A DNA stretch of 64,000 bases from positions 15,182,699-15,246,698 of the forward strand of contig OZ316894.1 in NCBI GenBank assembly GCA_973895155.1. The letters run 5' to 3'. Positions within the stretch are counted from its first letter, which is position 1. Every line of letters starts with the position of its first letter. The notes beneath the pieces were generated by a model. That model did not search any database. It worked only from the letters and a program-made list of their open reading frames with translations, and was not told the DNA's origin. The translations under genes and the position numbers were made by a program. The DNA is from Marsupella aquatica (Eukaryota; Plantae; Marchantiophyta). Below are positions 1 to 40,041 of this stretch, one piece after another.

Positions 1-283
1 ATTAACTAAATTTTTTTTAAGTGCAGGAGGCAAAAAAAGGTATTATAAACTCATGTTTATAGAATATTCTTTAATATATACCTTTTATAAAGTAAAATAG
101 GTTATTAATATTAAAATTAAAAAATATTATTTGAATATTTTATTTATAAAAAAAGTCTATTTATATTAGGCTAGGATCGCACGTGGTACCCCAAAATATA
201 CACTTAGTTAACCCTCCGAGCAGATCCTCAATAATCAACGCTAGAGCTCCAACAATTCCCTTATGATTCAATCCTCCCATAAG

Positions 284-430
284 TGTTATAACCCATAATA
301 TGACTTAACCCTAGTATAGGATAGGTTAACATTAACCCAACCATGTTAACCCTTCTGGACTATATAAGTCCTTGGCATAATGGAAGTGAGTGGGGATTAT
401 TGACTACTATCATCTTGTGTATTCATAACA
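284..430 (+). repeat. 5' LTR (147 bp)
   Basis: TGTTATAACC...TTCATAACA; contains a TATATAAG box; matches 5930-6076. Confidence 0.97.
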
Positions 431-444
431 CGTTATCAGCGCGA
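431..444 (+). promoter_or_regulatory. Primer-binding site, half-tRNA-Ile type
   Basis: CGTTATCAGCGCGA directly after the LTR; one base from the CGTTATCAGCACGA PBS of Bianca elements, which is complementary to the anticodon arm of tRNA-Ile. Confidence 0.75.
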
Positions 445-977
445 CTTGCTCAATTACATTTTTTTTTACATGTGCTCCCTCCCCAAAATCTGACAACTAA
501 ATAGATCGAGGTCCACACAAAGAAAACAACACAATGTTGTGTGTTTTTTGCTCTAATGGAGAGAATAACCGCCTAACTACCTCCCGAGAATAGAAAAAAC
601 AAGCTTATGATCGAAGAACAAAGAACTGGCTATAGAGCGTCGAGCCTAATCACGAGCGAAGATTCTCAACCTTGAACGAAGGAGACAACGCGACGAGACG
701 CGAAAAACAAAATAAAAGACATTGGCGAAAACTGAAAACTTTGAGGACCGCACACAAGGACATACGAACGAACTCCATCGGGGACAATTTGGATGCGATC
801 CAAGGGGCAGATGAGTCCCGTGCCTTGAGCGAAAGGATCGCTATCGTTTCTCTTTCTTTTGGTTAACTTGATCCATCACAACAGCCGATCGATCGGGCGG
901 GACAAGGCGAAAGTCATAGGCATTTGATACAAAGGAACACCATATATTTATAAGGCCCAAAATCAGGCGAAATAGAC

Positions 978-3900
978 ATGGCAACATTGGAGAAGTTACA
1001 TTTCCCAGCCCTACTAGTAGACGGCAGCAACTACTTGACATGGGCCGTAGATGCGGAAACATACTTCGCATCGTTGGAGCTTGAAGATACATTAATCACA
1101 GACCAAAATCTGACTCTACAACAGAAGGCCAAGGCCGTGTTCCTTTTGCGCCAGCACTTGGTTCCCTCACTAAAATCCCAATACATGAACGAAGTCAATC
1201 CACGACTCCTGTGGGACAAGTTAAAGGCCCGATTCGACCATATGCGCGAAATATGGCTTCCTGAGGCTCGCCGCGATTGGTACAACCTACGAGTGATGGA
1301 TCATACTTCCATTGCTAACTACAACAGCGCTCTATTTAAAATTACCTCTCAACTAGAACTCTGCGGCCATCCAGTCCCAGACGCAGATAAGATCGACAAG
1401 ACACTGAGTACATTCCCCGAATCAAACATTGCACTCGGTACACAGTACCGAAATATGCAATTCACCACATATTCAGATCTTATCGCACATTTACTTGTAG
1501 AAGAGAAGCAACAGGTGGTCGCCATGCAAAACGCCCGAAAAAGACCTGCGGGAACAGAACCACCACCACACAAACCAGAGATAAATTACTATCAGCGAGA
1601 TAACATGGGACGAGGCCGACCAAGAGGCAGAGGCGGATACCAAGGCAGAGGTAGAAACCAATCCTACAGAGGTCGAGGATATCGACAATCATACAACACA
1701 AGAGGCAGGGGAGTAGGCGGCAGAGGCAGGATGAGTGATAATGCATCGGACAACACCAAAGATGACAGGATGTGCTACCGATGCGGAAAAATAGGACACC
1801 TGAAGAAAAATTGTTGGGCATCGGACCAAATAGCCAGGAAACATACAGAATCAAGAGCTAGACTCAAACAAAACCCAGCAGGGAACTACATGGAGCTAGA
1901 AGAAGCAATAGCCACCTACAAAGACCCCGAACAACCTCATGAAGTGGAGACCCACATAGTAACTCCAGCAAGAGGACCCTACACACTACAAGACCCCAAT
2001 CTGGGCATAATTGACAGCGGTACGTCTCATACAATACTAAAGGACAAGAAATATTTCCACTCAATTACCCCATCAGCCCGGCATATGACCACCATTTCAG
2101 GCACAAACCAGATTGAGGAGGGTAAAGGCACAGCCACGGTAATATTCCCAGGAGGCACTGCACTCGCCATCGAAGCAGCGATATTCGCCCCGCGAGCTAC
2201 AAGGAACCTCATCAGCTTCCGAGACATAGTCGCAAATAAATATCAACTGCGCACAGTGAAAACAGACGAGGAAGATACCCTCCAAATCGTGGAGGTTACC
2301 GAACAAGGTATACATATTAAAGAAACCTTACCCCTTATACCACCAGGCCTCTACGCAACTCAAATTCAAGCTCACTATGTCACTGCAGACTTACCTGATA
2401 TCACATACTTATGGCACTGTCGACTGGGACACCCCGGAGTAAACATGTACCGCAGAATTATTCATGACTCCCGTGGAATCCCCCAAGGAGTCAACCCATC
2501 AACAAAACAAAGGCAATGCCTGGCGTGCTCTCAGGGGAAGCTGATTACACGCCCACAAATACAGAAGACAATCTATGCCATCCCGAACTTCCTGGAACAC
2601 CTGAACGCAGATGTATGCGGCCCGATCCACCCACCAAGTGGACCGTTTAAGTATTTCCTGGCCATCATCGACTCTTCGACCAAATGGCTGCAAGTATCTC
2701 TACTCTCTACACGCAACTTGGTCTTCGCTAGGATACTGGCCAACATTCTAAAGCTTAAAGCACAATTCCCAGAACATCCAATTCGGAAACTGAGAGTGGA
2801 TGGTGCAGGGGAATTCACCTCAAAAGCATTCGATGAGTTTTGCTGGGCAGCGGGCATTGACACTGAATACTCAGTCCCATATGTCCATTTCCAAAACGGA
2901 ATGGCAGAATCCGTTATCAAGCGTATACAGATGATAACCAGACCCCTGTTAATGAATTCAAAGTTACCCCTATCCACATGGGGACACGCAGTCCTCCATG
3001 CTGCCACACTGCTTCAATACAGACCATCGGCGTTCAACACAAAGACTCCACACCACTTAGCGTTCGGACTACCTCCAGACCTGTCACACCTGCGGGTATT
3101 TGGATGCAAAGTCATGGTCCCAATACTGGGACCCAAGCGTACAAAAATCGGACCTCAAAGACAAGAAGGAATCTACATCGGAAATGACTCATCCTCGATC
3201 ATTCGCTACCTGGAACCGACAACAGCCGATGTGTTTAAGGCCAGACATACAGATTGTCATTTTTACGAAGACACTTTTCCCACCCTAAGCATAGACAAAC
3301 AAATGACAGGGGACTTGCACCCACACCAGATCAACTGGAACAGCAGAAACTTACTCAACCAGGACCCGAGGACGAAACAAACGGATGCAGAAGTTAGACG
3401 ATTACTCCACCTCCACGAGATGCTGGATAAGATCCCAGATGCATTTAATGATGCAGCAAATGTTACAAAATCCCACAACGAGGCAACCAATGTACCAGCC
3501 AGAGTACAAATGAATACTCCTCCAGCAACAGTAGCTGCCCCTAAGGCGAAAAGAGGTAGGCCACCAGGATCACATGATACCCGACCCCGCCAAAGACGCC
3601 CCCATCAGGTAATTCCTGAAACTACTTTTCACTTCATTAATAATGAATCCGAGACACCAGACATATCGGGTAATGAGGAGATGTCAATTCAGTATAAGCA
3701 TACAGGACAAATTTACACGAGACAAAACACTACTGTCGACGAACAATTTGCTTACCATATAGCTCAAGAAATAACCAATGATACTTCGGACCCTTTAACA
3801 ATCAAAGAAGCACAAACAAGGTCAGATTGGCCACACTGGAAAGAGGCCATTGACACAGAAATGGATGCACTAATCCGTCGACAAGTCTTCGGACCAGTCA

Positions 3901-5591
3901 AACAAGTTGATCCTAACAATGACTATACAGACAGCCGATTTACGTTCATTAAAAAGCGAAATGCAAAAGGTGATGTTATCAGATACAGAGCGCGATTAGT
4001 AGCAAAAGGATACACCCAGATCCCAGGCAGGGACTATGATCTAACATATTCACCAGTAATGGACGTGACGACATTCAGGTATTTAATTGCTTTCTCTCGC
4101 AAACACCAATTATGCAATATCCTTATGGACGTAGTAACGGCATACCTATATGGAGTCTTAGACTCCGAAATTCATATGAAAGCACCAAAGGAATTACTCG
4201 AAAGAGTGGCAGAACACATTCAGGGGAAGCAATACCCGAACCTGAGCAAGGATATGAAGTCGGGAATTGACCAGATTATCCCTAATGATGATTGTAAAGG
4301 CCTTGTGTTGAGCAGTGGCAACACACAGAAAGCACCACTCCAGTACCCCGGAAAACGAAGGACTGGACAGCAGGCATTTGCTGTGCAAGTATTGAAATCC
4401 ATAAACGGCCTGAAACAAAGCGGCCGTATATGGTACCAGAAATTTAAAACCGAAATACAAGCACTCGGATTTATTACAGAAGACATAGCGCCCTGTATAT
4501 TCATCAAAAGAGTAGACACAGAGTTCGTCGTGTTAGCGCTATATGTCGATGACATTAATCTTTTCGGTACACAACGACTATTACGACAAACAATCAACAC
4601 AATGAAGGGCATTTTCGAGATGAAAGAACTGGGAGAACCGACTTACTGCCTCGGCCTTCAGTTCGATCACCTACAGACAGGCACATTCATTAGCCAGTCT
4701 ACCTATACAAACAAAATCCTCCAACAATTCAATATGCAAAAGGCATACCCGGTATCAACACCAATGGAGCTGAGATCCTTAGACACTGCGAAGGACATGT
4801 TCAGGCAAAGACAGGACAACGAACCAATACTAGATTCAGATAAGCCATACTTATCGGCTATCGGAGCCCTCCTTTACCTGGCCAACAACACCCGACCGGA
4901 TATATCCTTTGCAGTGAGCCTCCTCGCACGACATAGCGCGCACCCGACAATACGCCACTGGAACGGCATAAAACGAGTATTCCGATACCTCCAAGGAACA
5001 ATTGACATGGGACTATTCTTCCCCAACGAAAGCGAGGATGAACTTACAGGATACGCGGACGCTGGATACCTCTCAGACCCCCAAGATTCAAAGTCGCAGA
5101 CAGGATACGTCTTCTTGCAGGGTAAAACCGCCATATCTTGGAGAAGCACGAAGCAGAGCCTAACCACAACGTCATCGAATCACGCCGAAGTAATTGCCCT
5201 CTATGAGGCATGCCGCGAAGCGATTTGGCTCCGTAGTATAATCACACATATACTCAAACAGACAGGAAAAACCTTACTCACAAATCCAACCACCATCTAC
5301 GAGGACAATAGGGCATGCGTCGACCAGATAGTTACAGGCTACATGAAGACCGATCGAACCAAGCACATAGACCCGAAATTTTTCTTTACGCACGAACACA
5401 GCGGAAAGCAAATACAAGTAAAGTGGATAAGCTCACAAGACAATTGCGCCGACCTCTTCACCAAGCCGCTACCAGCGACTACACATCGAAAGCACGTCAG
5501 CGCCATTGGAATGCATCGTCTCTCCTCCCTAACCTCCTCGACTAACGACAACTCCCGACACGAACACACAGCCAACGCAAAATCGAAGTAG
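978..5591 (+). CDS. Copia Gag-Pol polyprotein, 1537 aa (Gag-PR-IN-RT-RH)
   Basis: CCHC knuckle CYRCGKIGHLKKNC; protease IIDSGTSHTI; integrase WHCRLGHPG, ADVCGP, RVDGAGEF, QNGMAE; RT RYRARLVAKG and LYVDD; RNase H GYADA, IYEDN, ADLFTKPL. Confidence 0.97.
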   Translation: MATLEKLHFPALLVDGSNYLTWAVDAETYFASLELEDTLITDQNLTLQQKAKAVFLLRQHLVPSLKSQYMNEVNPRLLWDKLKARFDHMREIWLPEARRDWYNLRVMDHTSIANYNSALFKITSQLELCGHPVPDADKIDKTLSTFPESNIALGTQYRNMQFTTYSDLIAHLLVEEKQQVVAMQNARKRPAGTEPPPHKPEINYYQRDNMGRGRPRGRGGYQGRGRNQSYRGRGYRQSYNTRGRGVGGRGRMSDNASDNTKDDRMCYRCGKIGHLKKNCWASDQIARKHTESRARLKQNPAGNYMELEEAIATYKDPEQPHEVETHIVTPARGPYTLQDPNLGIIDSGTSHTILKDKKYFHSITPSARHMTTISGTNQIEEGKGTATVIFPGGTALAIEAAIFAPRATRNLISFRDIVANKYQLRTVKTDEEDTLQIVEVTEQGIHIKETLPLIPPGLYATQIQAHYVTADLPDITYLWHCRLGHPGVNMYRRIIHDSRGIPQGVNPSTKQRQCLACSQGKLITRPQIQKTIYAIPNFLEHLNADVCGPIHPPSGPFKYFLAIIDSSTKWLQVSLLSTRNLVFARILANILKLKAQFPEHPIRKLRVDGAGEFTSKAFDEFCWAAGIDTEYSVPYVHFQNGMAESVIKRIQMITRPLLMNSKLPLSTWGHAVLHAATLLQYRPSAFNTKTPHHLAFGLPPDLSHLRVFGCKVMVPILGPKRTKIGPQRQEGIYIGNDSSSIIRYLEPTTADVFKARHTDCHFYEDTFPTLSIDKQMTGDLHPHQINWNSRNLLNQDPRTKQTDAEVRRLLHLHEMLDKIPDAFNDAANVTKSHNEATNVPARVQMNTPPATVAAPKAKRGRPPGSHDTRPRQRRPHQVIPETTFHFINNESETPDISGNEEMSIQYKHTGQIYTRQNTTVDEQFAYHIAQEITNDTSDPLTIKEAQTRSDWPHWKEAIDTEMDALIRRQVFGPVKQVDPNNDYTDSRFTFIKKRNAKGDVIRYRARLVAKGYTQIPGRDYDLTYSPVMDVTTFRYLIAFSRKHQLCNILMDVVTAYLYGVLDSEIHMKAPKELLERVAEHIQGKQYPNLSKDMKSGIDQIIPNDDCKGLVLSSGNTQKAPLQYPGKRRTGQQAFAVQVLKSINGLKQSGRIWYQKFKTEIQALGFITEDIAPCIFIKRVDTEFVVLALYVDDINLFGTQRLLRQTINTMKGIFEMKELGEPTYCLGLQFDHLQTGTFISQSTYTNKILQQFNMQKAYPVSTPMELRSLDTAKDMFRQRQDNEPILDSDKPYLSAIGALLYLANNTRPDISFAVSLLARHSAHPTIRHWNGIKRVFRYLQGTIDMGLFFPNESEDELTGYADAGYLSDPQDSKSQTGYVFLQGKTAISWRSTKQSLTTTSSNHAEVIALYEACREAIWLRSIITHILKQTGKTLLTNPTTIYEDNRACVDQIVTGYMKTDRTKHIDPKFFFTHEHSGKQIQVKWISSQDNCADLFTKPLPATTHRKHVSAIGMHRLSSLTSSTNDNSRHEHTANAKSK

Positions 5592-5920
5592 AACCTCGAC
5601 AAACTACTAAATCGTAGTATCTAACGAACAGTTTACAGAGAGACACATGTTCCCCCATCATGAATACAATACTACCCCGACTAGAGTAACAAATAAACGC
5701 TTACTTACTATTAGCCCACTGGCTTAGACAGTAATAGGCTACTTTTAGACTTAGAGCATACACATTAGAGACTTTCTGAATTAGGGACCACAAATTGTAA
5801 TGATGGTAGTACTCTTCCTTGAGAGGAAAGCAGCAAGGTTTGATGAGGCTACATCATAAGTGACTCCCACTTTTAAACTAGGGTTAAATGTGTGGTTCCT
5901 TGACACCCGTCCAAGTAACC

Positions 5921-5929
5921 AAGGGGAAG
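5921..5929 (+). promoter_or_regulatory. Polypurine tract
   Basis: AAGGGGAAG immediately before the 3' LTR. Confidence 0.85.
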
Positions 5930-6076
5930 TGTTATAACCCATAATATGACTTAACCCTAGTATAGGATAGGTTAACATTAACCCAACCATGTTAACCCTT
6001 CTGGACTATATAAGTCCTTGGCATAATGGAAGTGAGTGGGGATTATTGACTACTATCATCTTGTGTATTCATAACA
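5930..6076 (+). repeat. 3' LTR (147 bp)
   Basis: Identical to 284-430; followed by TSD ATAAG. Confidence 0.97.
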
Positions 6077-6978: not shown

Positions 6979-7849
6979 CGGACGGATATGTGAGGAAGGA
7001 ACAAAAGCTTACCGGGATTTAAAAAAACCTTCCAATAAGGCTTCCACAACCACCCTGAAAATCATAAGTCGTATTGTTATTATTTATTCCTGGTGTTTCC
7101 GCAACGCCTTCTATATTTTTATTGCGCACATCATTTTTATTACCTTTGAATATAACAACAATAAAAGAGACAGACAACATTTGTGAAATATCGGAGACCG
7201 AGCCACCCCTCAAGGCATGCACACAAAAGTGTTATTTTCTTTGAAAGTTGTTATATTCTTACTTTGACGTATGTGATATGGCGTCTACAATTTAGCACTC
7301 ATTTGCCGATCAAGTGAAAACACTCTCGACGACTCGTGGTATCCATGCAAAATATCATAGACCAAGCCGAAACTCTAAGCATGTGCACATGGATTCCTCT
7401 ATCTCCACAAGCGTTTCACTCAATGGACAAAGGATACTAAATTATTAAGGTGACATTAAGAAGTTCTTGTACAAAATATCGCAAACCGAGCCGAGACTCA
7501 AAGCATGCATGTACAAGTATTCCTTTATATCCCTCCATTTGGCACTAGGGTTATTAAAAATGAAAACCACGCACAAAAACAACCTTAAAACTTAAATGAA
7601 ACCGCACCAAAGCAAAACACAAATACCAAAACAAAAACACCAAAACAAAACAAAAGCGCTTACCTTAACTCCTCCACTCTACCTCTCCTCCTCTCCCTCC
7701 TTCCACTCTCGCTCCTCCCCCCTCCACTTTCTCTTCCACCTGAAAAATGAGAAATGATGAGTGAAGGGGGAACTCCTCCTCCTTTTATCCCCTCTCCCCC
7801 CGGTCCCCACCCTCCCGACTCTTCCTCGGCTCGAACCCTAATCCTGCAG

Positions 7850-8052
7850 CCACCGCGACCCAGCCCCTACCCGGCCCACTCTCGAGCCGATCCCCGACCC
7901 GGCCCCCTACTCAGCCCACTCCCAAGCCAAGCCCCTATCCACCTCCCACCCTGGACCCGGCCCCCTACCCGGCCCACTCCCAAGCCGAGCCCCTAGCTAC
8001 CCACCTCCCACCCCGGACCCGGCCCCCTACCCAGCCCACTCCCGAGCTGAGC
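7850..8052. repeat. C-rich degenerate tandem repeat (~57-61 bp unit), split by the MULE; continues at 18791-18925
   Basis: Repeated CCCGGCCCCCTACCCRGCCCACTCCCRAGCCGAGCCCC..CCACCTCCCACCCCGGA; the unit resumes in register after 18791. Confidence 0.8.
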
Positions 8053-8418
8053 AAGGAATTTTACGGTGCGAGCAAACATGAGTTTTTGCTAGCGAGGCAG
8101 CATTGTTAGCAAGGCACATTTTATGGTCGAATTCACAACACATTACTGGAAAAAATGACCAAATTTCATTGTTTTCCCTCTCTCAAAGTAATGAAAGTGT
8201 TATAACTACGGAAATTCATGCATGATTGTCATATGCTTTCCATACTTGACTCTGTGCACAACGATATTGGTAAACAATAACCGAATAGTAGGCACTTTCA
8301 TGAGAACATGGTCATTCTTTATACATTGAAAGTATGGATATCCAAAAACCGGCACACAGAAAAAACTATAAGAGTCGATGGTAAGCAGTACAGCCAGTTT
8401 AACACTGAAGCTATTGCA

Positions 8419-11400
8419 TTAGTCATAAACCTCATCTTCTGAATCATCAGATATTGAACTTCTATTGGGATCGCTACTGGTCTCCCTCTCAGTAGACTCG
8501 GCAGACTCATCTAAATACTGGCTAACTATCCCCACTTCATTGTCAATAAACCTTGAACAATCCAGATATCTACGAGCTCCTCTGATTGAGCGAAGCCCTT
8601 TCGCCTCCCAGGTCAAGACCACAGGAGCGTCATCAACCTCCTTCGTCGACTTCTCAGCATAGCACGGAAGAGTGAAAGGCTTCTCTGGAGTAACCACGAT
8701 GGATTCCTCCACTTCCTTTCGAAGATAAAATCTCTCCTCAGAAAACCAATCCACCCTCCTATCACTGAAGCAACCACCGGCATCAGTTGAGGAAGAGCAA
8801 CAAAATGAATAAAACAAAAGAAACCAAATTGGGAGTCCGACACCAGAAGAGGCCAAGTACTTTACTCGAGGTCGAATTTGTCTTTCTCGCTTGAAGGTCC
8901 AGCCTGTTCATCTCCTGGTATCGTGAACTCATCATCAGACCCAGCATCCTGATTACCCTTCTTTTCCTGATCTTTAATCATCTTGGACTTGCTAGAGTTC
9001 CAGAACGCTTGTTAAACCTTTCTGAGCACAGGAATGGAGAATGTCCCTGTCCTCAACACCAACAACGAACCGACCGGAGTATTCCCCTGCGGAAAATGAG
9101 CTTCCATCGCACATAGTCCAGTCAAGGACGATATCTCTCGGCTTCATGAGAAACTCCATTACGGCTTGCATGAAGCCAATTGATAGCCTTTTTGATCCAG
9201 CAACGGCCGCTGTTGGACAGGGGACAATCTTTGGGTAATAGACGCTCAACATTGATTTATGCCTGGCATCTTCCAAAGAAGTCAAAGGAACATAAGCAGG
9301 GTCTTTGGGAATTTTTGCATTAAATTCCACTCAACAAAAGACGTATAGAATGAGAGTGCACACTTGAAGGAAGAATGACATTCTATTAGAAAAGCCTGGA
9401 AACTTTGTTAGCGAGATTGCTAGCAAAAATTCAAAGATGGAAATGAACCTTTCAAAGTGAAAATGACAAGATGTTTGTTAGCAACATCGCTAGCATAAAC
9501 CGCATCAAAAATATCTATATAATATGTACCTCAATATCCATATCGGCTCTCCATAAAGGAGTGGATAATAAAATTGTATATTGTTGTACGTGTTTGAATT
9601 TGTTTTTTTGCTCCACCACAGTAAATATTTGCCGCATGTGATTGAAATCCAAGCTATGAAACACAGCCACATATCCTTTGTTCGAAAGCATGGGTCTCAT
9701 GACTCCAAAAAAGTAATAAGGAAGCTTCTCGCTCCACACATTCCAGGACGGGACCTCTTTGTCTGTAATGCATGTTCTATGCCCTGTTGGAAGAGAAATG
9801 AATCCCAAATGTGCTCCAATCCCAGCATATGGCTTGCCGTTAATGATGACAAGGTTTGGGCATTCGACGCTCTTGGACATCCCAGCAATCCATCGATCTC
9901 CATCTCCCATCCAAGATGGCCTTACTTTCTTTACGGTGATAGAATTTGCAGTGTCGGTTAAATTACTGCGAGCAAGGAAATGTCTCTGGCCATCCATCTT
10001 CAACCCACACATCCGAGCGACGCCTGAGCAACTGAAACTTCATCATCGTCCAAATCCGATAGAATCTGGACATTCCTCTTTCGTTTCAGAAGCTTTATAC
10101 TTCCCAAATCCACTGCGCTCTTTGTTGTTACTTCAACATCTGGGGACTGAGGTTCCTCTCCATCATCTGCCCCGCTCTTCAAACTCTCAGAAGCAGTACC
10201 CTTCCTCCTCTCTGTCAAAAAATAGCTATTAAAATCTGTCTCTTCAGAAACACATAAGATCGTGAAAAGAAAATGAAACAAAACATTAACACACTTACTT
10301 GGCTTTCCCGATATTTGGGACCCATCTTTGGATGTGTCTTTCACTGCACCTTTCCTTGGCTTCCTAGACCGACTCCTATCCACTATTGCAGCTACACCAA
10401 GACAAGCCTTTTCCATAGCCTCGCAACCACCAACTTCAGCGTCAGTGGGTGCCAATTTGGACTCCAAGATGTAAGACTCCGGAAGGAATCCACGATTGAT
10501 CATATGAAGAGCGGCTTTCTCTGCAGTGTCAAAGGTGACAGACCACTTGTCTGAGTCCAAATACCATGGACAGTGAAGAATCTCCCACTCGCTCAATCTC
10601 CTCAAAGCCTCACATCCCTCACAAGGAAACATAGAATAATCCCCAAATTTGTCACCTGTAGGATCCTCTTTAACTCCTGCAATCCATGGGGAGAAGCAAG
10701 CTGGGTAGGACCACCAGTAGAATTTGTTTGCTACTTCTCTGTCTACAAAAAATTGATATGTGTATCTCTTTGCTCTCCTTTGGAACAATGCAATCTCGAA
10801 CTTCTCTCATGTCTTGGGAGGCCAAATCTGCTTGAAGAAACGAGTCTTCACACGAGTCTGGAAATCCTCAAAATCCTCCTCAATGTCAAGGATGAGCGAA
10901 GCTTTGGTCTTTTCTGAAGAACTAAGGATCTGGGACTCTGGGACAGTAGGCATAACCTCAGACACAATTTCAGACATGAGGGAAGACGCAATTGACTCGA
11001 CTTGCTCCCACACTGCCCAACGGTGAAGCCAAAGCTTCGTTTCACTATCTGAAAATTGACCAAGATGAAAGAACTTCTTTCGAAGCTCTGGACATACGAC
11101 ACTGCGCTTCCAGGAGTGTACATCGGAGTTCTGGGGATAAGGACATCATCCCTGTGAACAATCGAGCTCGATGAAGACCACAAGAAACATTTCCTCATCC
11201 TTTGTCATCAGTTCTCTGGGCCTCCTTTCTCTCATTCTCGTAGTAGTTATGCATTTCTACACATTTCTTGAAAAAGTCTCCAAATTCTGGATTCAATAAT
11301 GGACCGATCTTAGGAACTTTCACATTCCAATCAGCCAATTGCTCCTTCATCATCTCCCGCATTGCTAAGTCTTGTGAGGCCTTCGACAGGGGCTCCCCTT

Positions 11401-12322
11401 GAGCTTCCTTCAAAGCAAACTTTTTCTTGAGGTCTTTCGTCTGAGATGCAATGTTAGCAGCGGATAAAATATAAGTGCAGGCATCTAGCGTCATGTTCTT
11501 GGAATACCAAGCTGCCTTCCGCACATTTGCCATCTTTTGCTGGAAAAGTTTATAATTCTCAGCATCGATGATATCCTTGTAAACTGACAAGTCATTGTTC
11601 AGAATCTTCTGGACCCGTTTGGCCTCCAAAACCCAGGAGTTTTCAACGTGACATTGTGTCAACCTGCCAGAGAATTTTCATGTTAGCGAGATCGCTAGCA
11701 GGAAGTGATTAACTGAAACACAAATTTTAGGAAAATGTTATACTTAGAAATTGCACCTGTTCAATGCATGCATTGCCAACTCGATCTGAACAAATGAGTT
11801 TTTATCACCCTTAAAAATCTTGCAAACAACTCGTGGATGGTACTTAATATCTTTCGGATGCTCTTCTGCAAGTTGAGTCCAAGAATACAGTCGATGGTTT
11901 CCATCGAAAACAAAGAACATCTTGTCTTTGAGGACGTGGAAAGATACATGGGAATCACATTCGCGTTTGAACTCCTTGTTTTGCAGCACCCAAATGTCAT
12001 CCCAAGTTTCGCGGATCGCATCAGTACACAATTGGAGCTCTCCATCCTCGTTGGTCATCTGTACGTAAAATCGAGGCGCATCTTCAATGTAACCCTGGGT
12101 CCTGAACTCGGACTTCAGTGTGTCTATCGCAGTTGAATCCTTTTGCAGAGATCGAACAATTTGCATGTTCCTCATCCTGCAGAGAGGAATTTGAGGGGGA
12201 GCAAGAGAAAAACCAAACTCATTCACTCCGAAAGAGTAAAGATGATGGTTTATGACAACAGTATAAGGTTCCGAAGCGCTTGGATCAAACACCGATGCCA
12301 CAACATCTACTGTTGTCACCAT
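8419..12322 (-). pseudogene. Spliced MULE cargo gene: N-terminal ParB/Srx-like domain, central helical region, C-terminal beta-class N4C/N6A DNA-methyltransferase-like domain
   Basis: FFVFDGNHRLYSW (ParB-like); MTase motif-I region KPRDIVLDWTMCDGSSFSAGEYSGRFVVGVE; motif-IV position AHLGFISLPTG; RPMLSNKGYVAVFH; GT-AG introns at 11756-11664 and ~9529-9395; in-frame stops (11195, 10807) and a frameshift near 11075. Confidence 0.7.
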
Positions 12323-13144
12323 CTTGGGTCGTCTTGGAGTCTTCAATCCCGATACTAGCACCTTCTTGTTTGCTGTAGACCTTGTTTCTCTTCTAGTCGA
12401 CTCCCTAACTGGAACGATCCTCTGGAAGAAATACTCTCTAGAGACAACGACGACTCCATGAAATAAAACCCTTCGCCAAAGAGTGTACTTTGCTGAAGAG
12501 TGTTCCTGTACAGAGGATGCAACCCCAACACGAGTGACAAACGTCAACAACAATCAGTATCGGATAGCCGTACAGACTGTTACAAAGACCAGTTGAAGTC
12601 CTAAAGAGGTGTAGTCGTGAATACAGAAGACGATATCAAGTCCGAAGAAGGAATAACAGAAATCTCCTGGCGAAATGTTGTACTTTTGGGAAAATGCGAA
12701 GAACAACTCTCACGGTCGGGAGTGTAATCCATACAAAACAGGAGAGGCGTCGGTCGTAGTTTGTACCATTGACATTTTGGTGCCGTTGACTATTCTCAAC
12801 GGAATCCCAACAGTAAAATTGGAGACCGTTGAAATTACTTTTTGGCTAGCAAGATTGTTGGCCTGAAATCCATAGTCTATATCTACATAAAATCTAGTAT
12901 AATCTTTATAAATATATCCATAAAGCGTGTCGTTATATGCTAGCAATCTCGCTAGCATGAGGACTCCGACGATGCAAGTAGTAAAAGACAAAACAATGGT
13001 CACATCAACGGAAACTCTTTGACAATTTGGTCGATGTGTTGTTTCCGTTGGGATGAAATGAGATTAAACCTTCATCATAAGGGTCATGTCGACGATCCTA
13101 AGCATAGTCATCTTCTTTTGTTGTCATTTAAAATTTTGTCTGGG

Positions 13145-16100
13145 ATGATTGAGATGTCTTCCAAAGTCATTTTGCAGCGTAGAATGACGGGAGATGTAGT
13201 TGTGCTTCCTAGCACACCAGGTTCATCGGAGGTGACAGTGATAGAGTCATTCCTTACAACTCGGTTTGGGCTTCTAGATGGTGATATCATCTGCAAGTTG
13301 TTTGAGTTGTATTGTCAAAATGGAACACGTAGTCACGAGTTGAGAGAAGAGAGTAGTACTTCCAACAGGGTTTGGACATTGAAGGTTGGATCTCATGTAG
13401 AGGTTGTGTCGAGTAAAGATGACATTCCTGAAATCATTCTGGACCATGTGGATTCTCCTCCTGAAGAAGAGACTACTCGTGTGATCGATCTGGAAACGCC
13501 TACAAAAGAAATGGCCCCAGATATCATTGAAATATCTCCCGATAGTCTAAGGCAGGACACATCTTGTGGGTCAGCCAAGTCAGGAGGTGGTTCAGAACCC
13601 GGAGGATTGGTCAAGAAAATGGATGTGCTTACCATGCCAATAGTGTATTGGAGTGCTTATGACGCTTTCCTCAATATAAGTGGCGCAAATGAACTTGCAC
13701 AATTTTGAAGAGGGAATTAGTGGAAGGAGTGCCAGGTTCCTAGTCTGCCATCGACATACAATGGTAACGTTGTTTTTGAACTTCCTCCCATCGAAGGGTC
13801 TGGATGCGGAGGAGGTCTTCAAGATATGGATCGAGAGAACGACGGCTATCCATGGACTCAACTTGTCACTACGTCTGCAAACCTGAAGCCAAGGTTCCAT
13901 TGGTCTGTCTCGAAAGTCTGATGTGCTGGAATACTTGAATGCCAGAATTTGGGATGTCGGAAGTTCAAGCATACGAATGAGAAAAATGCTTGCTCGTTTA
14001 GAGGGAAAGGGTTACTGACTGACATCTTCCGTCTTTGGGAGCACGTGAGTGAGGGTGGCATAGTTTGTGGATTCTGTGAAGAGCGGCCGCTTTGTATTCA
14101 AAATTTCCCGGCAAAACTTTTGTACGTGTACCCTAAGCCAGGTTTGGAGAGTCACATTTCAATGCATATGTCCAGGTTGGCTGTGCATATGGGATTCCAT
14201 GACCATTCGGTTTGGAAGGGGAAACCTTGTTCAGCGAGAAAGACTGCGGAAGATGTCGTTTTAGGGGTCCATAGATTGAATCCAGTATCAACTCCAGCAC
14301 GTGTGAGAAACCAGTCGATTGGCAGCCTTGTCTCACTTTTGCATCCGGAATCATCATCTCAGTTGTCAAGAGAAGAACAGATGGAAATCTGGAGTTCCAT
14401 AGGTGTGGTTTCCACTGCTCCCAAGTTCCAAGCTATACTTCGGAGTATCAAGATGGATAATCCCAAAAAAAGAGAACTTGATGCCCTTCGTGAAATGCAG
14501 TCAAGGAATAATTTCCCTTTTGTGCAAAGGTACCTTTTTCCTGGTCAAGGGAATAAGAATGATCGAGCGCATGTATTCCAAATGAGTACAAACGGACCTG
14601 GATCTGGTGTGGACATTTTGAGGAGCATGGAGTTTGGAGGAGTTTTGGAAGGTGCTTGGGTCAGTTTTGACGTGATGCATCGCATCACTACTGGATGGTT
14701 GACATTCAGTGCACATGTTTATGACCACAATTACCGGGCTCTGTGTACAATTTTTACTTGTAAGTTGAGAGCCGAAGATACTGAGTCCCTTGAAACTGCG
14801 TGGCGATTGATGGTAGATGTGGCATCGGAGAATGGAGTGCATAATCCTGTTATTGGAGGATTCATAGCTGACAATGCAGAGGCTGGTTGGATTGCTGTAC
14901 GACAAGTTTTTTTGGTGGTGTTCAAAATCCTATGAAAGAGCACAACGATGCTTTCCATTTTTCTCAGTCCCTGAGGAGACACACATTGGATGGCATCAAG
15001 GAGGGGTGTCATGTAGAGCATTATAAGATGTGGGAGAAGTTAAGGATTGCCCCAACTTACGTCAAAGGGTATAGAATTGCAGACGACATTCAGAAATGGT
15101 GGAAAGAAGGGAATTGTCATCCTTCAAAGCTCAAATCCCTTCAAGGTTGGATTTCATGGTGGGTTGTGCGATGGAGACAATGGGGGAATTTTATTCGAGT
15201 GGTAAGTTTTATCCATCATTTATGATCCATTTAAGCCAGCGAGATTGCTAGCCTAAATATCGTTGTTTTAACCCTGGCTAGTCTGTAACTAGTGTGCTTT
15301 CTACTAGCAAGGTTGCTAGCCTGAATACCACTAACATTGATTCTATGGCAGACACAAACTGCAAAAGAGTTTGCCTTGATGCCAAACTGCGCGGGGTCTG
15401 AATCTTCTCATGCTTCAATGCGATCGTGCCAACCGAAGAAGAGAATTGGTTTGATGGAAGCATGTGAAGTTGATCAGAATAGAGCAGTTGGACAGATTGC
15501 TCCGTTCACTGCGTATATGGAAGGATGTCATCGTGGTAATGGTCCTACAATATTTGAGCTGGCCTATCGCAATGCAGATACTACGGGATCGTTGGATGCC
15601 TACGAGAAGGCCATCCAATCTACTATTTGAATCCTTTGGAAAGTATGAGTTCTATAGAATAGAGCCTTTACATGGGGATATTTGGACAATGTCAGGAAAA
15701 CAGAAGGGTAATGCTTCCGCGTCTATTCATGAGAATGATTCTCATCGACATGATAAAATATTGCGTACAATGACTCTCCGTCAAGCTTGAAAAGAAGGAA
15801 TCTGTACGCTGAATTCAGTAGTTTCAGAACTGGTTCTGACCTTGGGGGACCGTCATGTATTCCTCATAATGAAAACAGTCCCACCCGCCAGACATATGCT
15901 CTCCCTCGTGAAGTTATCAATATCTCAGATGATGGTGAAGAACAAAGCCTTGGAACAGATGTAGAAGGAACACCGATTACAAATGATCTTGGAGAAATAC
16001 CATCTCCTCAAAATAGTCAGGATCGGATTTGGGATGCCCCCCGAAAGATCCCTTTCATTGAAGAGGTTGATGTTTTGTATGGGACCTGGCATTTGAGACA

Positions 16101-16839
16101 AAGTGGGAAAGGGAGTGGACCCGTGTGCAACGGACTAGTGGATCGGAGTGTCTTTGGTAGAGAAGAATGCCGTAATCTGATCAAGGAAACTGGATATAAG
16201 GCGTTCCGGACTGGAGTTGTTGGTGTGGCCATTCACGGATTGAGGTTGTCCTCCCCACATCGTCAGCTTCTGTACTTCTGTCCGAATAATAAGTGCCATA
16301 AAACAGGTGGAAGAAGGACTCTTGCCCAACTTTCGCAACCACCTGAGGCACTGCAAGTCCAACAAGGAACTAGGCTGACCCCTGAAGAGATTGATTTTCT
16401 CCTTCAAAATGGCTTTCAAATCAGAGGGTTATCATACTCTGATGCGACGCCAATCAGGTCATTCTCTCCTGCAAGTCGTCTTGACCTCTGAATTGATGTG
16501 AACGCCTTCCCCGAAAGGGTTGACATTGCTTATCCAAATTGTTGATTGAAGACTCGAAATGGGAAAGGCGTTCAACAACGTTTCTAGAACACCCCTGAGC
16601 TTCTCAAACGCATTTGATCTGCAACTGTCGAACAAATGAGAGTCATTGGAAGTGACAAGATTTGCACAGGAAACGGATGGGGATGGCAATATTTCATCGC
16701 TACTCACGAGAGTGACTCTAGAATTGCACACAACTACTGGATTCAAGTGTGCTGCTTCCCTTGTTGCTCTTGTGATGACTTCTACAAGAGGCACACGCAA
16801 GGAAGACCCTACATGTCTTGTAAACATCTCTTAATCTAG
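13145..16839 (+). pseudogene. MULE transposase with GCM/WRKY-like N-terminal Zn domain, DDE core and SWIM finger; disrupted
   Basis: CAGILECQNLGC...CGFC...HMGFHDH (GCM-like); FDVMHR, FIADNAEAGWIAVRQVF, AFHFSQS, GSESSH (D-D-xxH-E); YWIQVCCFPCCSCDDF...CKH (SWIM); stops at 13706, 13718, 13918 and a frameshift near 14910. Confidence 0.85.
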
Positions 16840-17432
16840 AGAGAGACAATCTTGTGAAACAGCCAATTCTGACTGTTGGTGAACTGAGGAGTTTGATTCC
16901 GTTACACAGTAGTTGAGTCCATCTCTTTTATCCGTTAAGGTGGACGTTTAAGAGTACCTGTTTTTGTCGCATTCCAGGTTTCAAAACCTGAACAATGGAT
17001 ACTTTCCGAGTAATAAGAATGTTGATGGTATGTTAGCGAGGATCTTCTGCATATTAAGTGTGGGTCCTAAATGTTGCCTATTTTAACTAGCGATGTCGCT
17101 AACAATTAACAACACATACAAAGATGTAATTCAACCGAACTTCTGTGAAAGTTTAACATACATGGAGTGATTGCATGCCATCCACAACAAAAATCACTCA
17201 AGTACCGGTAGGCAATATTTACTAGCGATCTCGCTAGCAAGGTATGCACTCATGAAATTGAAAAAACTTTCGAAGCTTTATTCAGATATGTGTCCAATCT
17301 TTATCAAAACATCTGTAACTGACAAAATGTTCGTGTCCTACCGATCATTTCATTGTAAGGTCACGGACTTGACAGAGATTAACTTTAAAACTATGGGGGT
17401 TCGCAACGCGGAGTGTTTGTCTAGGGTACTAT

Positions 17433-18159
17433 TCATGGAGATGCTGCCTTGTAGGCGTCTGAATCTGTGTCCAAATCCGTATCATAATCGGACGAAGCTA
17501 GGATGTCGGATGTCCAGTAGTTGTGTATGTCGATGTCCCTCCAGTAAGACTCCTCCTCCTCTCTCTTCCGCTTCTTTGAAACTCCCTTAGAAACGGATAC
17601 GTTTGTGCAAGAAGACATCGGTGGTCTGGAAACAATGCTTGAGCTTGAAGTTGTTTCCTTCGGCGGTGCAGGTCGCTGAGTTGAAGCACAGACAACAAGC
17701 GGTACCCGACTGGATGCTGATCCAGTCTTGAGCGGAGGGGGTACACTCTTCCTTGCCGGAGGAGAGCTTGGTGGCGAGTCCAATGGGCCGTCAGTTTTGG
17801 CGTTGTATCGGCGGACCTCCACAACCCATTTGGCTTTTGGAGCGGAAGAGTCATCGTTCTTTGCCATTTCTGTCTATAACAAACGCTGCTATGTATCATA
17901 TTACTTTCTCAACATGTGTTTACCAAATAGAAATAGTCACCTTCAAAACATCCAAGCTCATCGAGTCAAAACGCGCAAAACTACGAGAAGGAAAATAGAA
18001 CTGGGAAAACCAGACTTTCTCATTAACAATAACGCTACTTGCTGTGAAGAGGTCTCCAGGTATCGAACTTACCTCTCCTTGTGTGACAAAAACTTTGCGA
18101 TAATGCGACACACTCGAGAACACCAGATCCCCTCCTCGCCCGTGGATATGACAACACAA
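17433..18159 (-). CDS. Third MULE-internal gene of unknown function (probably two exons; S/P-rich, KKRKR NLS-like motif, acidic tail)
   Basis: ORFs 17920-18159 and 17433-17867 separated by a short AT-rich intron-like gap; convergent with the transposase. Confidence 0.35.
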
Positions 18160-19432
18160 GCTCGATTGAAGTTACTCTGCGATGCGAAGACGATCGCGAA
18201 AGAGTGAGGAGACGATGAAAGTCAGATAATGAGAACACTGTTAGGGAACACTGTTAGGAATGGAGATGAGTTGAAAGGTCCGAATGACATATAGTGCATT
18301 TCGGGAGCCTCGGATCCTCTGAAACGGTTTCGAGTTTCACGCTTCACTCATGAGGAAGGGGACATTGGATTCTGTCGTGATATGATCCGGTGTAGTGCTG
18401 TTGCTGCAACCGTTAACACCCGTGCTTTCTAATGAGTGCTTTTCGTGTGGGTCATGACCGCACGAAGTATTTCGTGCGAGAATGATGGGCAGAGTTATGG
18501 CTAGCGACTTCGCTGGCCTGATGTACGTTGGAATTATATATTGAATTATGGTGCCATCGATGACCGTTCGTGTCAGGGGAATACGTAATATGTACCAATC
18601 CATGGTCGGGATCGCTTTTAAAACCCAACGGGAGTGAAATAAATAGGTGGAATAGAAGGTTCCTTTTAGGCTAGCGAGAGTCACTTTATGCTAGCGAGGT
18701 TGTTTTTGTGCCAAATTTTGGGTATTCCAAGGAGAAAATGATCCCGTGCGAGGAATTTTTTTACTGTTTCCTCGCACGCTACAATGACCCGAGCTGAGCC
18801 CCGATCCACCTCCCACCCCGGACCCTACCCGGACCCAAACCGGCTCCCGAACCGGCCCGGCCCTCCTCCGACCCTCCCCTGACCCGGCTCCCCTACCCCC
18901 GGACCCCAGCCGGACTGCTCCCGAAGGTTGACGGCTTGCCAATTTGACGCTGTTTTTCGACCCATTTGACGGGCAAGATCAAACCGGCATTAAAACTTAC
19001 AGCTGGGAGTCCAATCAATGGATAATCGATAGACATCGACAAGGACCATAATAATTGCTCATCACATGGACCTTAAAGGATACGAAAGGAAGACCGGTGC
19101 TTTTTCCAAGTGAGAAAGCTTGTGAATCTTGGCTTTCGCCAGGACAGGGAAGCTTGATGAAGTGGATGTGAAGCTCAAAAGATTGGAAGGTTGCTAGGAC
19201 ATGGGTCGCTCTCGTGTGGCAGGTGGTGCTCGACCATTACGTTTTCAATTATGATCTGATGTATCTATTTTAAAGACAAAGCGCTGCAGTGCTTTAGAGT
19301 CCGTTGAAATTTATCCAGTTCATTCGATGGCAGAAGCTGACCTCCGCGAATTGGCGCTGAAATTCTCAACTGTCTACCAGTGACCAGTGGTTGTGGTTGT
19401 GGAAACCTTGTATCTATTGTAGAGAAGTGATC

Positions 19433-24265: not shown

Positions 24266-24560
24266 CTTCACAGGGGTGCTCTAAGGACCTTCTAGCATTT
24301 ATGAGATCTTTTTAAAATCAAAACTAAGATTTCAAGTGTTGAGTCATTTTTCGGCTCAATTTAGTTATCTATTCTAACTAAGAATGGAATATTTACTACC
24401 CTACCATAAAGATTTTATTTATTCCTTGACACTTTCTTAGAAGATCATATTTTCTCCTCAACATTATTTTTGTAGTGGCTTTCTCTAGTTACTTAGGGTT
24501 ATAAACCCTAAATATTTTGTTAACATTAAAACATCTTTCTTATTATTCCTTCTCTAAAAA
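24266..24560 (-). repeat. Dispersed AT-rich repeat; diverged inverted copy of 41130-41417
   Basis: CTTCACAGGGGTGCTCTAAGGACCT... aligns along its length with the reverse complement of 41130-41417. Confidence 0.8.
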
Positions 24561-24744
24561 AAATTTTGATTTATATTTTCACTTAAGGTACTATTGAACC
24601 ATTCCACAAGGAGTTGGGTGTTGGAGTCTAAGTGTTTAGGTAGTCAAGTTCTACAATTATCTCTGACAAACAATACAAGACATAAGTTATTGAGTGTGTT
24701 ATTCATGATTGATAATTGAAGGGGGAAAAGGTTCAATAAAACAT

Positions 24745-26950
24745 AATCACCTGACAGTCTATCTTGGCCACATATATGGGAACAAACATGACAACGTTAT
24801 GCGTACATATGCACTAGAATCTTTTGGATTCTTGATAAGCAACAATGACTTGAGACATGGGATAGTACTCACTATTGTGCAGAATTGTGATGACCCCATC
24901 GTCTGATAAAAAAGGGTGCATGGATTTGAAAAAAGATCTAGCCATAGAGTGATCTGGTGTGTTCCATTTTGGAACTTTCTTGTCAAGGATCGTCGGTTGG
25001 AACCCCGTTGGAAGGTAAATGAAGCCCTCATCGACTCCAAACAATCTTTCTTTTCCTCCCTCAACGATGCCATTTTCTTTGTATCCCTAAACCCTAAATC
25101 CTTCCACCACTTCTCGACATTATTCACCCAATCTGGCTTCTCCTATTTGTTAAAAATTGAGTCAAAGAATTCAAAGATGCTTGACTCAACCATACAATGC
25201 AGAGACATTGTACTCTTGAAGTTCCCAACTTCACATTGGAGACCATTGGCAGCAACACTCTCTCTTGAAGAAGGTCCACTTTCCACAACCCTCTTTCTCT
25301 TCTTTCTAGTATTTGTTGCATCTATGGGAACAATCAAGTTCCCTTTATTGACAGGAGTAATGGGGTCGGATCAAGCTCCCATATTTGCTTCAGAAACTTC
25401 AGGGGTAGCATCCACCTTAGCTTCTCCGGTTCCCGCAGTATTTGACTTCCTCCCTCCTAAAGCAAGAGTACAATGTCACACTCAAAAGATCATCTTCACA
25501 AGGTTTACAAAACACTAGCGCCAGGCGCTAACCAAATTAGGAGCCCCATATATCTTGCAACTGTAAGAGAATTGCAACAGACAAAAGACCACCAAGTAGG
25601 AGTTGCTTCAGAAGACATCCTATAATAGCGCCAAACACTGGCCAACTCAACAATAAAAATACTCACGTTTCCTCCCCTTAGTTGACTCGTTGGGTGCTGC
25701 CAACTCTGCTTTCCCTTTGCGGCTATGGTCAACGTGGACATTAGTGGTTTCATAGATGGTTTTTGATTCAGTGGCCGACTTTTAACATCGTCAAAAAGAC
25801 CCTCCTTCATGTCAGAAACAATTTTGGGCTTCAAAAGCTTATGGAATGCATCCTTTTTCCGTCTGATCAAAAGCTGAATCACATCTATCTGTATCAAAAG
25901 ACCATGGACAATGAGTTCTCTCCCATTCTGTCAAAGGTCTCAGTGGAAAAATTCCCTCCGCGGGGTACATTGAATACAAATCAGCCACAACATCATCCTT
26001 AGATATGATAGCCCACTTCATAAAAGCTGCGGGATATGCCCAAAAGTAATATGGTTTTGTTACTTCCATCTGGATGTAGAAGCGGTAGAGATACCTTTTT
26101 GTCTGCTTCTGATTCTTGAGAGTGTAGTCCTCTTTATTAGGATACTTTGATGGCCACATAGTGTGAAAAAACTTACTCTTCACTGCATCGCCATACTTTT
26201 TGAAATCGTTGTGACAACATCAACGAGATCATCAAAGGAATCACAGTTCCACTCTTGCAACTGACTCCCGAGAATGGTTTGTTGTACTTCTCAAAGAGAA
26301 TACTATAACATTCCAATAGCAATTCCCTCCACATTATTCCAAGTGATCCAAGTGTGACACCATTGTTTCACTGGGTTGACGCTAAAAGGATGGAAAAACT
26401 GCCTACAAAGCTTTGGATTACAATGTGCCACAAGGAATGTACTCCTCAACTTTGGATCAAGTGCAAAAACTGCAGTGAGCAATTGGGTGCGGTCCATTGT
26501 ACACAACACCATGTTGGGCTTCTTCTCTCTTTTGTTTCTCTCTGTGATAGCATACATTTCCGCACATGTACTCAAGAAATCTTCAAATTCTGGACTTAGC
26601 AAGGGTGTGATTTTTGAAGTCTTCATTGCCCACTCTTTGGTCGTATCCTTCATCATTAACGCATTTGGAAATCTCCTCCACTAACCAGGGACTCCCTTGG
26701 GCCGTGGCAGACTCCATGTCAAGCTTGAATTGGTGCGAATAAAACTTTATCTTATTCTCACATAAAATGTAAATAAGAGATTCCTGTGGCATCTTCTTCG
26801 TATACCATGACCCCTTCCGCATCTTAAGCCAAATGTTCTCAAACTTCTTGAAATTAGCAGGGTCAATCAGCTTACTATAATACTCCAGGTCATGAGTCAA
26901 AGTCCTTTTGATTCTATCCACATCTAGAATCCAGGAGGGTTTGGCCCAAG
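24745..26950 (-). pseudogene. Second, truncated copy of the ParB-MTase-like cargo gene (family 2)
   Basis: Collinear protein similarity to 8419-12322: SWILDVDRI/SWVLEAKRV, YYFWAYPAAF/FYWWSYPACF, LRPLTEWERTHCPW/LRRLSEWEILHCPW, GFIYLPTG..VPKWN/GFISLPTG..VPSWN. Confidence 0.8.
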
Positions 26951-29559: not shown

Positions 29560-30513
29560 GAATCATAATCTACAATTTATTTGCGCACAAAGGGCACACA
29601 TTCTCCCAGACTCAACAGGATCTGGGATGTTTCCCTGTCTATTTCTGAATGGAGTGAGGGCTTGGCAGATACTGTGGATCTCTGACCTATCCTCCAGGGC
29701 TAAAACCTTTATATGGAGGATTATCGCTCAGGGTCTCTTTTCCGGATCAAGAGCATTTAGGATTGCAAAGTCTGATGGGCTATGTGTGCTAAGATGTGGA
29801 GTAGTGGAGACCATTCCACATATTTTCTTTCAATGCCGACATGCACTTAACTGCTGGAATGAGGTTAGTGGATGGCTCAATGGACAGCTTACAGGCCAGC
29901 CTGTGACTATTATTGGCCTTCTACTTCTTCTAAACGCTACGCGCTTTTTTGATATACAAGATTCTTCGTTGCCTTTGGCTAGCACGGAACGGCCAAACCT
30001 TTGACCTAGCCCTAAAGCATGTCTTCAATCCAATTTCAGCTTTTTGTGAGACTTTAGATCATTTGTCTGTTGTTGCTACTACATCAGGCTCTAGCCGGGA
30101 ACATACTTGATTGGTTGGGTGTTGTTTCTCTCTTGGAAGAAGAACGAGATAGGATTTTGAGAACTGGTGCTAGGCAGATAGAATCTTTATGACAAATCAG
30201 GACCTGATGCAGCGATACTTAGTTAGATTTAGAGGTCATATCTGAACTCTATCACCTGTCCTTGTTGATCTGCCTGAATGAGGTTGACAAGGCTAAAGAA
30301 TTGCACAATAGTGACCCTTGCTGATGACAGTTCTTGACTGAGTTGCGTGTCTTATCTGGTCTATTGACCTTGACTTACAACTCATTGAACTTGTCTTTCT
30401 CTTATGATCTTTATGATCTTTTTTGACCTCTTTGAGGAGCGTTGCTTTTTGGCCTGCTTGGTCCCCCATCTATGGGGCCCCGCAAAATAAATGAAATTAA
30501 AAATTAAAAAAAA
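29560..30513 (+). mobile_element. 5'-truncated L1-type LINE (zf-RVT region and A-rich tail)
   Basis: WQILW..RAKTFIWRI..CVLRCGVVETIPHIFFQC; A-rich end at ~30484-30513. Confidence 0.75.
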
Positions 30514-30799
30514 CCAGGAGGGTTTGACAATGGCTTGTCCTAGCCTACAGGAAGAAACACAGTTTATTAGGAAAAAACAAGGAGCAATCTACAAGTAGCG
30601 TTAGGCAATCTTAAAACTAAGACACAGAGATTTAAGAAGACAATGGAGATCAAAGACAACTTACTCGTTGATGGTGTGCATCGCCACTTCAATTTCAATC
30701 AGAGATCCCTTGTCTCCCTTAAATATTGTATAGAGCACACACAGGCGGTATTTTGGATTTTTGGGGGTTCTCCTTTGTGATTAGTGTCCATGAGTACAA

Positions 30800-39765: not shown

Positions 39766-39811
39766 TACTCAACAATGTCAGCCGCAATGGACTTGTAATG
39801 TGTAGAGGAAT

Positions 39812-39990: not shown

Positions 39991-40041
39991 ACATCTTGGC
40001 GAGGCCACTGACTTGTATTTTTCTATTGTCAACCATTGTGA

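Follow-up and report, generated by a model that had tools for sequence, protein, structure and literature searches.

Transposons that carry a ParB-like domain together with an amino-methylase have been described in algae. In the brown alga Ectocarpus, the element Sola1-1_Ec32 encodes, on the strand opposite its transposase, a 1104-aa protein with ParB and N4C/N6A methylase domains; for this accessory protein, binding and modification of the transposon that encodes it were proposed, and the same source cites similar proteins from green and red algae (PMC12477816). Red-algal Plavaka elements and Mutator elements of Chondrus carry PAG2 and PAG3, a PF01555 methylase and ParB-like domain cargo, with inverted-repeat arrays located beside the ParB gene in Plavaka (bioRxiv 10.1101/2025.02.11.637652). 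Another accessory protein, VANC of the VANDAL Mutator-like elements (MULEs), binds motifs located in introns, between genes, and in the non-coding terminal parts, where they may be tandemly repeated (PMC5735166). The locus described here belongs to the liverwort Marsupella aquatica and comprises a stretch of 64,000 nucleotides (assembly GCA_973895155.1, contig OZ316894.1, positions 15,182,699 to 15,246,698), referred to below as the window, in which a MULE of 10.7 kb at positions 8053–18790 carries a cargo gene that combines a predicted ParB-type domain with a likely inactive amino-methylase. The reading that we favor, with about even confidence, is that the cargo protein likely binds ten palindromes of the element that encodes it and probably works against silencing by the host.

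The architecture itself is not novel, since algal transposons with ParB-methylase cargo have been described before. What is new is its carrier, a land-plant MULE, together with palindromes specific to each family and a degenerate catalytic motif that is under selection. No land-plant description of such cargo was found in the literature; subscription journals and bioRxiv supplements, which lay outside the search, may hold one. The Marsupella element shares with Sola1-1_Ec32 a single protein with ParB-like and amino-methylase domains, encoded on the strand opposite the transposase, whereas the carrier differs (a brown-algal member of the Sola superfamily there, a land-plant MULE here), and the likeness considered is one of architecture. 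In the available part of the Sola1-1_Ec32 description neither a target palindrome nor a comment on catalytic residues was met, whereas palindromes and a non-canonical motif IV are present here. PAG2 and PAG3 are also methylase and ParB-like transposon cargo, found in Mutator elements among others and with inverted repeats near the ParB gene; as far as the accessible text goes, they are two genes with SET and 2OG-oxygenase partners, in contrast to the one fused gene, the dispersed intronic palindromes, and the non-canonical motif IV of the Marsupella element. VANC, in turn, is a MULE-borne accessory protein with family-specific motifs in non-coding parts. Its motifs, according to the portion consulted, are short, asymmetric, and arranged head-to-tail, whereas the sites in the window are palindromes of 15–23 bp, and demethylation has been shown for VANC, with no ParB or methylase fold mentioned in that portion (PMC5735166).

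The predicted boundaries of the element were borne out. The same 9-bp direct repeat, GAGCTGAGC, flanks it on the left (8044–8052) and on the right (18791–18799), and degenerate terminal inverted repeats of 26 bp (8053–8078, plus strand, and 18765–18790, minus strand) are alike at 18/26 positions. Since 27 contigs of sequencing run X4 leave the element exactly at 18790 and enter unlike flanks (agreement 0.4), the right end is real and the element is a multi-copy family with a fixed right end; these junction contigs concern that end, the left one having no entry among the junctions listed. The element is covered in 30/30 bins in each of four public sequencing runs. A target duplication of 9 bp (9–11 bp being expected), a MULE-type DDE transposase, and dispersed copies with a fixed end are all features of MULEs. 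The description of the element as complete holds for its ends but not for its genes, both of which are broken by stops and frameshifts. Where the window copy departs from the family majority, the change is mostly C-to-T or G-to-A (24:6, 20:10, 24:10, and 32:12; 34 further difference rows are outside the listing), as expected after host cytosine methylation. A C-rich tandem repeat surrounds the insertion site (7800–8052 and 18791–18920). The element also contains a low-complexity frame of 146 residues with a KKRKR stretch (17436–17873, minus strand), possibly a third gene, for which no match was found in Pfam or among the homologs.

The MULE-type transposase gene (13034–16836, plus strand, start uncertain) contains stops and frameshifts, an intron at 15202–15351, and a DDE core that starts at ~14669. 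In the ESM Atlas the core matches MULE clusters, with a best score of 0.93 and PF10551 present in 19% to 89% of their members, and 10/10 of its best family matches belong to the MULE clan. In Pfam, the pieces of this decayed copy gave no match to a relevant family (0/5, and likewise for seven further pieces), nor did they match any of the collected cargo-homolog proteins. The Cys/His regions of the transposase may resemble GCM and SWIM fingers.

The cargo gene lies on the minus strand, divergent from the transposase as had been claimed, and consists of five exons separated by GT-AG introns. Exon 1 (11757–12553, with an uncertain start, perhaps up to ~12775, and a frameshifted 5' part) encodes the ParB/Srx domain with its conserved Arg and the DGNHR motif (~11903–11889). 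The helical central region is encoded by exon 2 (10299–11663), which has stops at 11195 and 10807 and a frameshift near 11095, whereas exon 3 (9530–10211, frameshifted near 10024) carries a low-complexity linker and then the first half of the methylase fold, including the motif IV strand (9805–9782) with the sequence SLPT at 9796–9785. The second half of this fold, with motifs I and II (DWTMCDG; GVE), is encoded by exon 4 (8866–9363), which contains a stop and a frameshift, and whose acceptor is visible only in the family majority and not in the window copy. The block PRDIVLDW...GRFVVGVE occupies positions 9141–9052, so that the placement of DGNHR near the N terminus and of this block near the C terminus, with motif IV before motif I, proved correct. 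Exon 5 (8419–8764) encodes a conserved tail (P..LP.YA; F[IV]D[DN]E).

This five-exon layout is colinear with proteins of the liverwort Riccia sorocarpa at ~25–37% identity. The same fusion is annotated at many Riccia loci, with pieces in Adiantum ferns, and eight of the 32 long homologs match the ParB exon and a methylase exon of the window in order, which upholds the claim of a true fusion. Many of the Riccia models, P0151, P0153, and P0154 among them, are automatically labelled trimethylguanosine synthase, and in the fern model P0103 the cargo is fused with an FCP1-type phosphatase domain, which may be an error of the gene model.

Exon 1 is predicted to fold like ParB/Srx, in line with the original assignment. 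Its structure model has a pLDDT of 94 and resembles ParB, Noc, KorB, PadC, and sulfiredoxin. In Foldseek, the 30 best matches listed up to rank 31 all have the ParB/Srx fold, the top one with E 0.036 and a probability of 0.99, and in a VIA comparison proteins with this fold form the top 12 of 15 rows, led by KorB with a Z of 7.4 and an rmsd of 2.6 over 91 residues. In the ESM Atlas, the exon leads to DUF3723 and ParB_N clusters, the best feature matches being fungal DUF3723 clusters. HMMER with the ParB exon yielded 230 relatives at E 0.001, the best 150 of which were listed; among 30 of those looked up by source, 10 are from Riccia sorocarpa, seven from Adiantum ferns, and 13 from metagenome or run assemblies, and no alga is named among these 30. 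The motif DGNHR is found in 67/106 aligned rows and EGNHR in 11/106, and the residues of the nucleotide motif are conserved in most of the relatives (Arg56 in 84/96 rows; G in 95/104 and R in 86/103 for G-x-x-R). A tree of 92 of the 106 rows places the window protein within a group of 26 rows that includes Riccia. The ParB/Srx fold with its Arg and G..R motifs, as well as dispersed palindromes of similar length, are common to this system and to bacterial ParB/parS, KorB, and Noc, whereas no ParA partner was seen in the window and the cargo has GNHR where the bacterial ParB consensus is GERR. An Asn of the cargo presumably stands at the place of the Glu of CTPase ParBs. DUF3723, a gene of fungal Starship elements, may also be ParB-type cargo; no paper joining DUF3723 with ParB was found in the literature. 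Longer proteins gave no match to the ParB exon in a word-index search, no relative of solved structure was retrieved by sequence with either P0153 alone or the ParB profile, and no relative of the exon turned up in IMG/VR or among INPHARED phages. A profile comparison with SopB, directed at a helix-turn-helix in the central region, had no power, as even the ParB domain escaped it.

The C-terminal part of the cargo is predicted to adopt the beta-class amino-methyltransferase fold, as had been proposed. The C termini of Riccia homologs match PF01555 just under the cut-off (E 1e-5 to 5e-5), and the family profile matches M1.HpyAVI (E 7.5e-5), as well as CcrM. A fold search with the model of the Riccia homolog P0154 retrieved CcrM at E 2.9e-6. 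The permuted Rossmann fold, with motif IV preceding motif I, is found in the Riccia homologs, to which the window exons are linked by sequence matches with the fusion proteins (E 8e-9 and 2e-5). Searches with the C-terminal methylase domain gave 13 and 26 proteins, all from Riccia sorocarpa. In phages, the methylase matched enzymes only weakly and at motif I (E 0.004–0.06; PHROGs best 4e-9), and, as no phage relative of the ParB exon was found either, no donor can be named.

In amino-methylases the catalytic motif IV is given as [DNSH]PP[YFW] (PMC4738411, in the part available), and mutation of SPPY to APPA is reported to abolish the activity of rotifer N4CMT (PMC8885841, likewise). The copies in the window depart from this pattern, with SLPT, YLPT, and YLLT in copies 1, 2, and 3, and in Riccia (44 proteins examined) motif IV is D[LM][PS][TS] at 34/34 sites, with an aromatic fourth residue at 0/34. 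Among the rows listed, the family majority differs at motif IV only by a silent change and reads DWTVCDG at motif I; the first Gly of motif I is absent in the family of the element (DWT[VM]CDG) and present in copy 3 and in Riccia, where most copies have DFAGGWG. Between copies 2 and 3, the methylase exon has a dN/dS of 0.15 over 111 codons, indicating purifying selection; most other pairs are saturated, the value for copies 1 and 2 being 0.39 at a dS near 2. Because motif IV is non-canonical and the exon is nevertheless under purifying selection, a conserved pseudo-methylase in liverwort-type elements is the simplest and likely reading of these sequences, which makes self-marking by 4mC or 6mA unlikely here. 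The element had also been proposed as a possible vehicle for amino-methylase folds in early land plants, with DN4MT1 of Marchantia and N4CMT of rotifers as known eukaryotic enzymes. These two share with the cargo the beta-class amino-methylase fold in a eukaryote, whereas both are active host enzymes with TSPPY or SPPY and with no ParB domain mentioned in the accessible text (bioRxiv 2021.02.12.428880, PMC8885841). DN4MT1, the one with TSPPY, groups with 4mC enzymes of prokaryotes, according to the same partial source (bioRxiv 2021.02.12.428880), and N4CMT stands at rank 38 in the fold search with P0154, below bacterial 6mA enzymes; nothing ties the element to either enzyme, and that part of the prediction is not supported.

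All four cargo copies in the window, each of them on the minus strand, are broken. The original prediction named two further homologs; both exist with larger extents, and a fourth fragment had been missed. Copy 2 (24745–31167) belongs to another family and consists of the previously overlooked ParB exon (31167–30667), an insertion, and the remainder (26950–24745). Copy 3, ~80% identical to copy 2, is a 3' half (48176–51309) that resumes past an insertion at 56050–56206, with motif I as DWTAGAG, and a MULE-like terminus lies at its end near 48176, for which no partner end and no target duplication were found in the window. Copy 4 (~38950–40735) comprises the last two exons, recognized by weak matches (E 1.7e-4 and 0.13). 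One of its introns contains a non-autonomous MULE-like element of 335 bp (40042–40376), whose inverted ends are flanked by a target duplication of 9 bp. The word [GC]AGCAAA, repeated at the ends, is common to the large element, this mini element, and the terminus of copy 3.

Palindrome 1, GYTAGCRANNTYGCTARC, is 18 bp long and occurs ten times in the element and not once in the other 53 kb of the window, against 0.06 expected. All ten sites are non-coding, though ~61% of the element is coding: two are in cargo intron 3 (9407 and 9477; 9407–9494), one in cargo intron 1 (11682–11699), two between the divergent genes (12845 and 12939; 12845–12956), two in the transposase intron (15235 and 15303; 15235–15320), and three downstream of the transposase (17086, 17221, and 18500; 17086–18517). 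Half-sites are also located within 130 bp of both element ends, at 8086–8112 on the left and at 18670 and 18690 on the right. In intron 3, the family-majority letters at 9418 and 9483 restore the symmetry of the sites, with seven changes between the sites among the rows listed. Because the pattern had been fitted on the element itself, a motif-free palindrome test was run, in which the element scored 9 and none of 35 shuffles more than 4; the scores of four other tiles were 5, 8, 4, and 3, the tile scoring 8 being the one with palindrome 3.

The other cargo families have palindromes of their own. Palindrome 2, TAGCGCCNGGCGCTA, has seven matches in the window against 0.77 expected, and six of them lie beside copy 2 (25516, in an intron) or copy 3 (49808, 49722, 48717, and 48594), or in the mini element (40227). 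A metagenome scan for cargo retained six loci of 77 candidates, four of eukaryotic type, on contigs too short to show neighboring genes, and two phage ParB-like; palindrome 3, read at one of these loci, L002, in the intron that follows its ParB exon, has 14 matches in the window against 0.88 expected, including a tandem array of ten in the last intron of copy 4 (39334–39911). Family-specific motifs in non-coding element parts, as known for VANC, are represented by all three palindromes, which look like candidate docking sites by analogy with parS or VANC targets. The window would hold three candidate protein-site pairs, each cargo family with its own palindrome.

In the mechanism that we favor, the cargo protein would dimerize and recognize its palindrome through the helical central region. 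The ParB domain, in which Arg and GNHR are kept, would bind nucleotide and may let the protein spread along the element, whereas the methylase fold would serve as a DNA-contacting or scaffolding module and not as a writer. As a result, members of the family to which the element belongs would be expressed or mobile, by analogy with VANC for VANDAL. Of the self-marking or anti-silencing function originally suggested, anti-silencing by self-recognition survives as a live hypothesis with candidate sites, whereas an active self-marking methylase is not supported, given SLPT and a motif I devoid of its first Gly. We can also consider a more far-reaching version, possible but on balance improbable, of a eukaryotic ParB/parS in liverwort and fern MULEs, in which loading at palindromes would be followed by nucleotide-gated clamp spreading and a dead methylase would block host methylation, yielding a second anti-silencing system independent of VANC, with possibly active writers in ferns.

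Several observations weigh against the proposed self-recognition. The scores for the ParB fold are individually modest, with no Foldseek match at E 0.001 and Z below 8, and none of the seven cargo pieces matched ParB or any other relevant family in Pfam (0/7); the fold was accepted despite these scores on account of top lists made up of one fold, the Atlas clusters, and the conserved Arg56 and GNHR. The methylase model is poor (pLDDT 52.5) and is that of the Riccia protein P0154 rather than that of the window. Two fern proteins have DVPF and DFPI at motif IV and may be active. As many as 10/14 matches of palindrome 3 belong to one tandem array, and palindrome 2 at 58672, as well as three copies of palindrome 3 (29218–29415), are not beside cognate cargo. 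Palindromes are present in the intron behind the ParB exon at two of four loci, and none was found in intron 1 of L001 (which is short), L004, or copy 2. No second transposase was found within the 64-kb window, nor one adjoining copies 2–4. Finally, the C-to-T and G-to-A decay of the window copy means that any protection was not lasting here.

The transposase of AtMu1 alone activates cognate copies, according to the part of the source available (bioRxiv 2026.08.24.746577), so the palindromes may, by analogy, belong to the transposase, which would bind them via its N-terminal zinc region while the cargo does something else. This explanation, which we hold to be unlikely, fits the half-sites near both ends and the single palindrome retained by the mini element, as expected of a transposase site. 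The end word [GC]AGCAAA would, however, be a more natural transposase site, and the palindromes vary with the cargo family and recur behind the ParB exon at two of four unrelated loci. We consider it rather unlikely that the palindrome-bound cargo merely assists transposition, in that it would bridge or compact an element of this length to bring the poor ends together while leaving chromatin unaffected. ParB proteins do bridge and condense DNA, and the ends are short and degenerate; such cargo is, moreover, reported in giant transposons of several superfamilies, in the accessible portions of the sources (PMC12477816; bioRxiv 10.1101/2025.02.11.637652). Yet the sites cluster in introns and between genes, like VANC targets, and not at the ends, and the conserved methylase fold would be left unexplained.

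That the cargo is an active 4mC or 6mA writer marking its own element would agree with the beta-class fold and motif order, with Ser as the first residue of SLPT, as in SPPY, with the Asp kept in Riccia together with, in most copies, the DFAGGWG motif I, with the nearly canonical DVPF of a fern, and with purifying selection on the methylase exon. We judge it quite unlikely in view of the missing aromatic fourth residue (34/34 Riccia and 3/3 window sites), the Tyr that opens motif IV in copies 2 and 3, and the absence of the motif I Gly in the majority of the element's family. It is highly improbable that the gene is a passively captured fragment of the Pack-MULE type and that the palindromes are by-products of local duplication. 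The broken state of all four copies and the mostly tandem arrangement of palindrome 3 would be in keeping with such an origin, but the layout colinear with Riccia proteins and the dN/dS of 0.15 speak against it, as do the scattered sites of palindrome 1, which are preserved better than the sequence around them.

Other features of the window touch the cargo copies or lie apart from them. An inverted 300-bp repeat, 80% alike (24266–24563 and 41121–41417), truncates or abuts the fragments of copies 2 and 4. A 4.7-kb element is present in two copies, ~85% alike (42508–47167 and 51310–56048); its long coiled-coil frames fit no Pfam family convincingly, and its second copy splits cargo copy 3. The palindrome 3 trio at 29218–29415 lies inside the insertion that splits copy 2, together with A-rich tracts similar to the ones in the mini element, and no element ends or target duplication were found around it. 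Open frames just 3' of copies 3 and 4 (48815–49309 and 38573–38902, both on the minus strand) have no Pfam match; the latter may be similar to the start of MULE Ulp1-like proteases. A Copia-type LTR retrotransposon (281–6076) has identical 150-bp repeats and an open frame of 1545 residues, and a LINE-like reverse transcriptase frame (56328–58640, minus strand) has a 3' end that recurs, 99% alike, at 34802–34956. Frames for an NSD-type PHD finger, a double BRCT, and a weak F-box are clustered at 59711–62577 on the plus strand and may be cargo of another transposon.

The three candidate protein-site pairs make the idea of self-recognition directly testable, and dozens of mislabelled trimethylguanosine synthase models in Riccia sorocarpa are explained as likely transposon cargo. 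If the proposal is true, a prokaryotic ParB-type DNA-loading mechanism would be at work in plant nuclei, the methylase half of such a protein could be kept without catalysis, and a sequence-specific tool for lifting silencing would become available.

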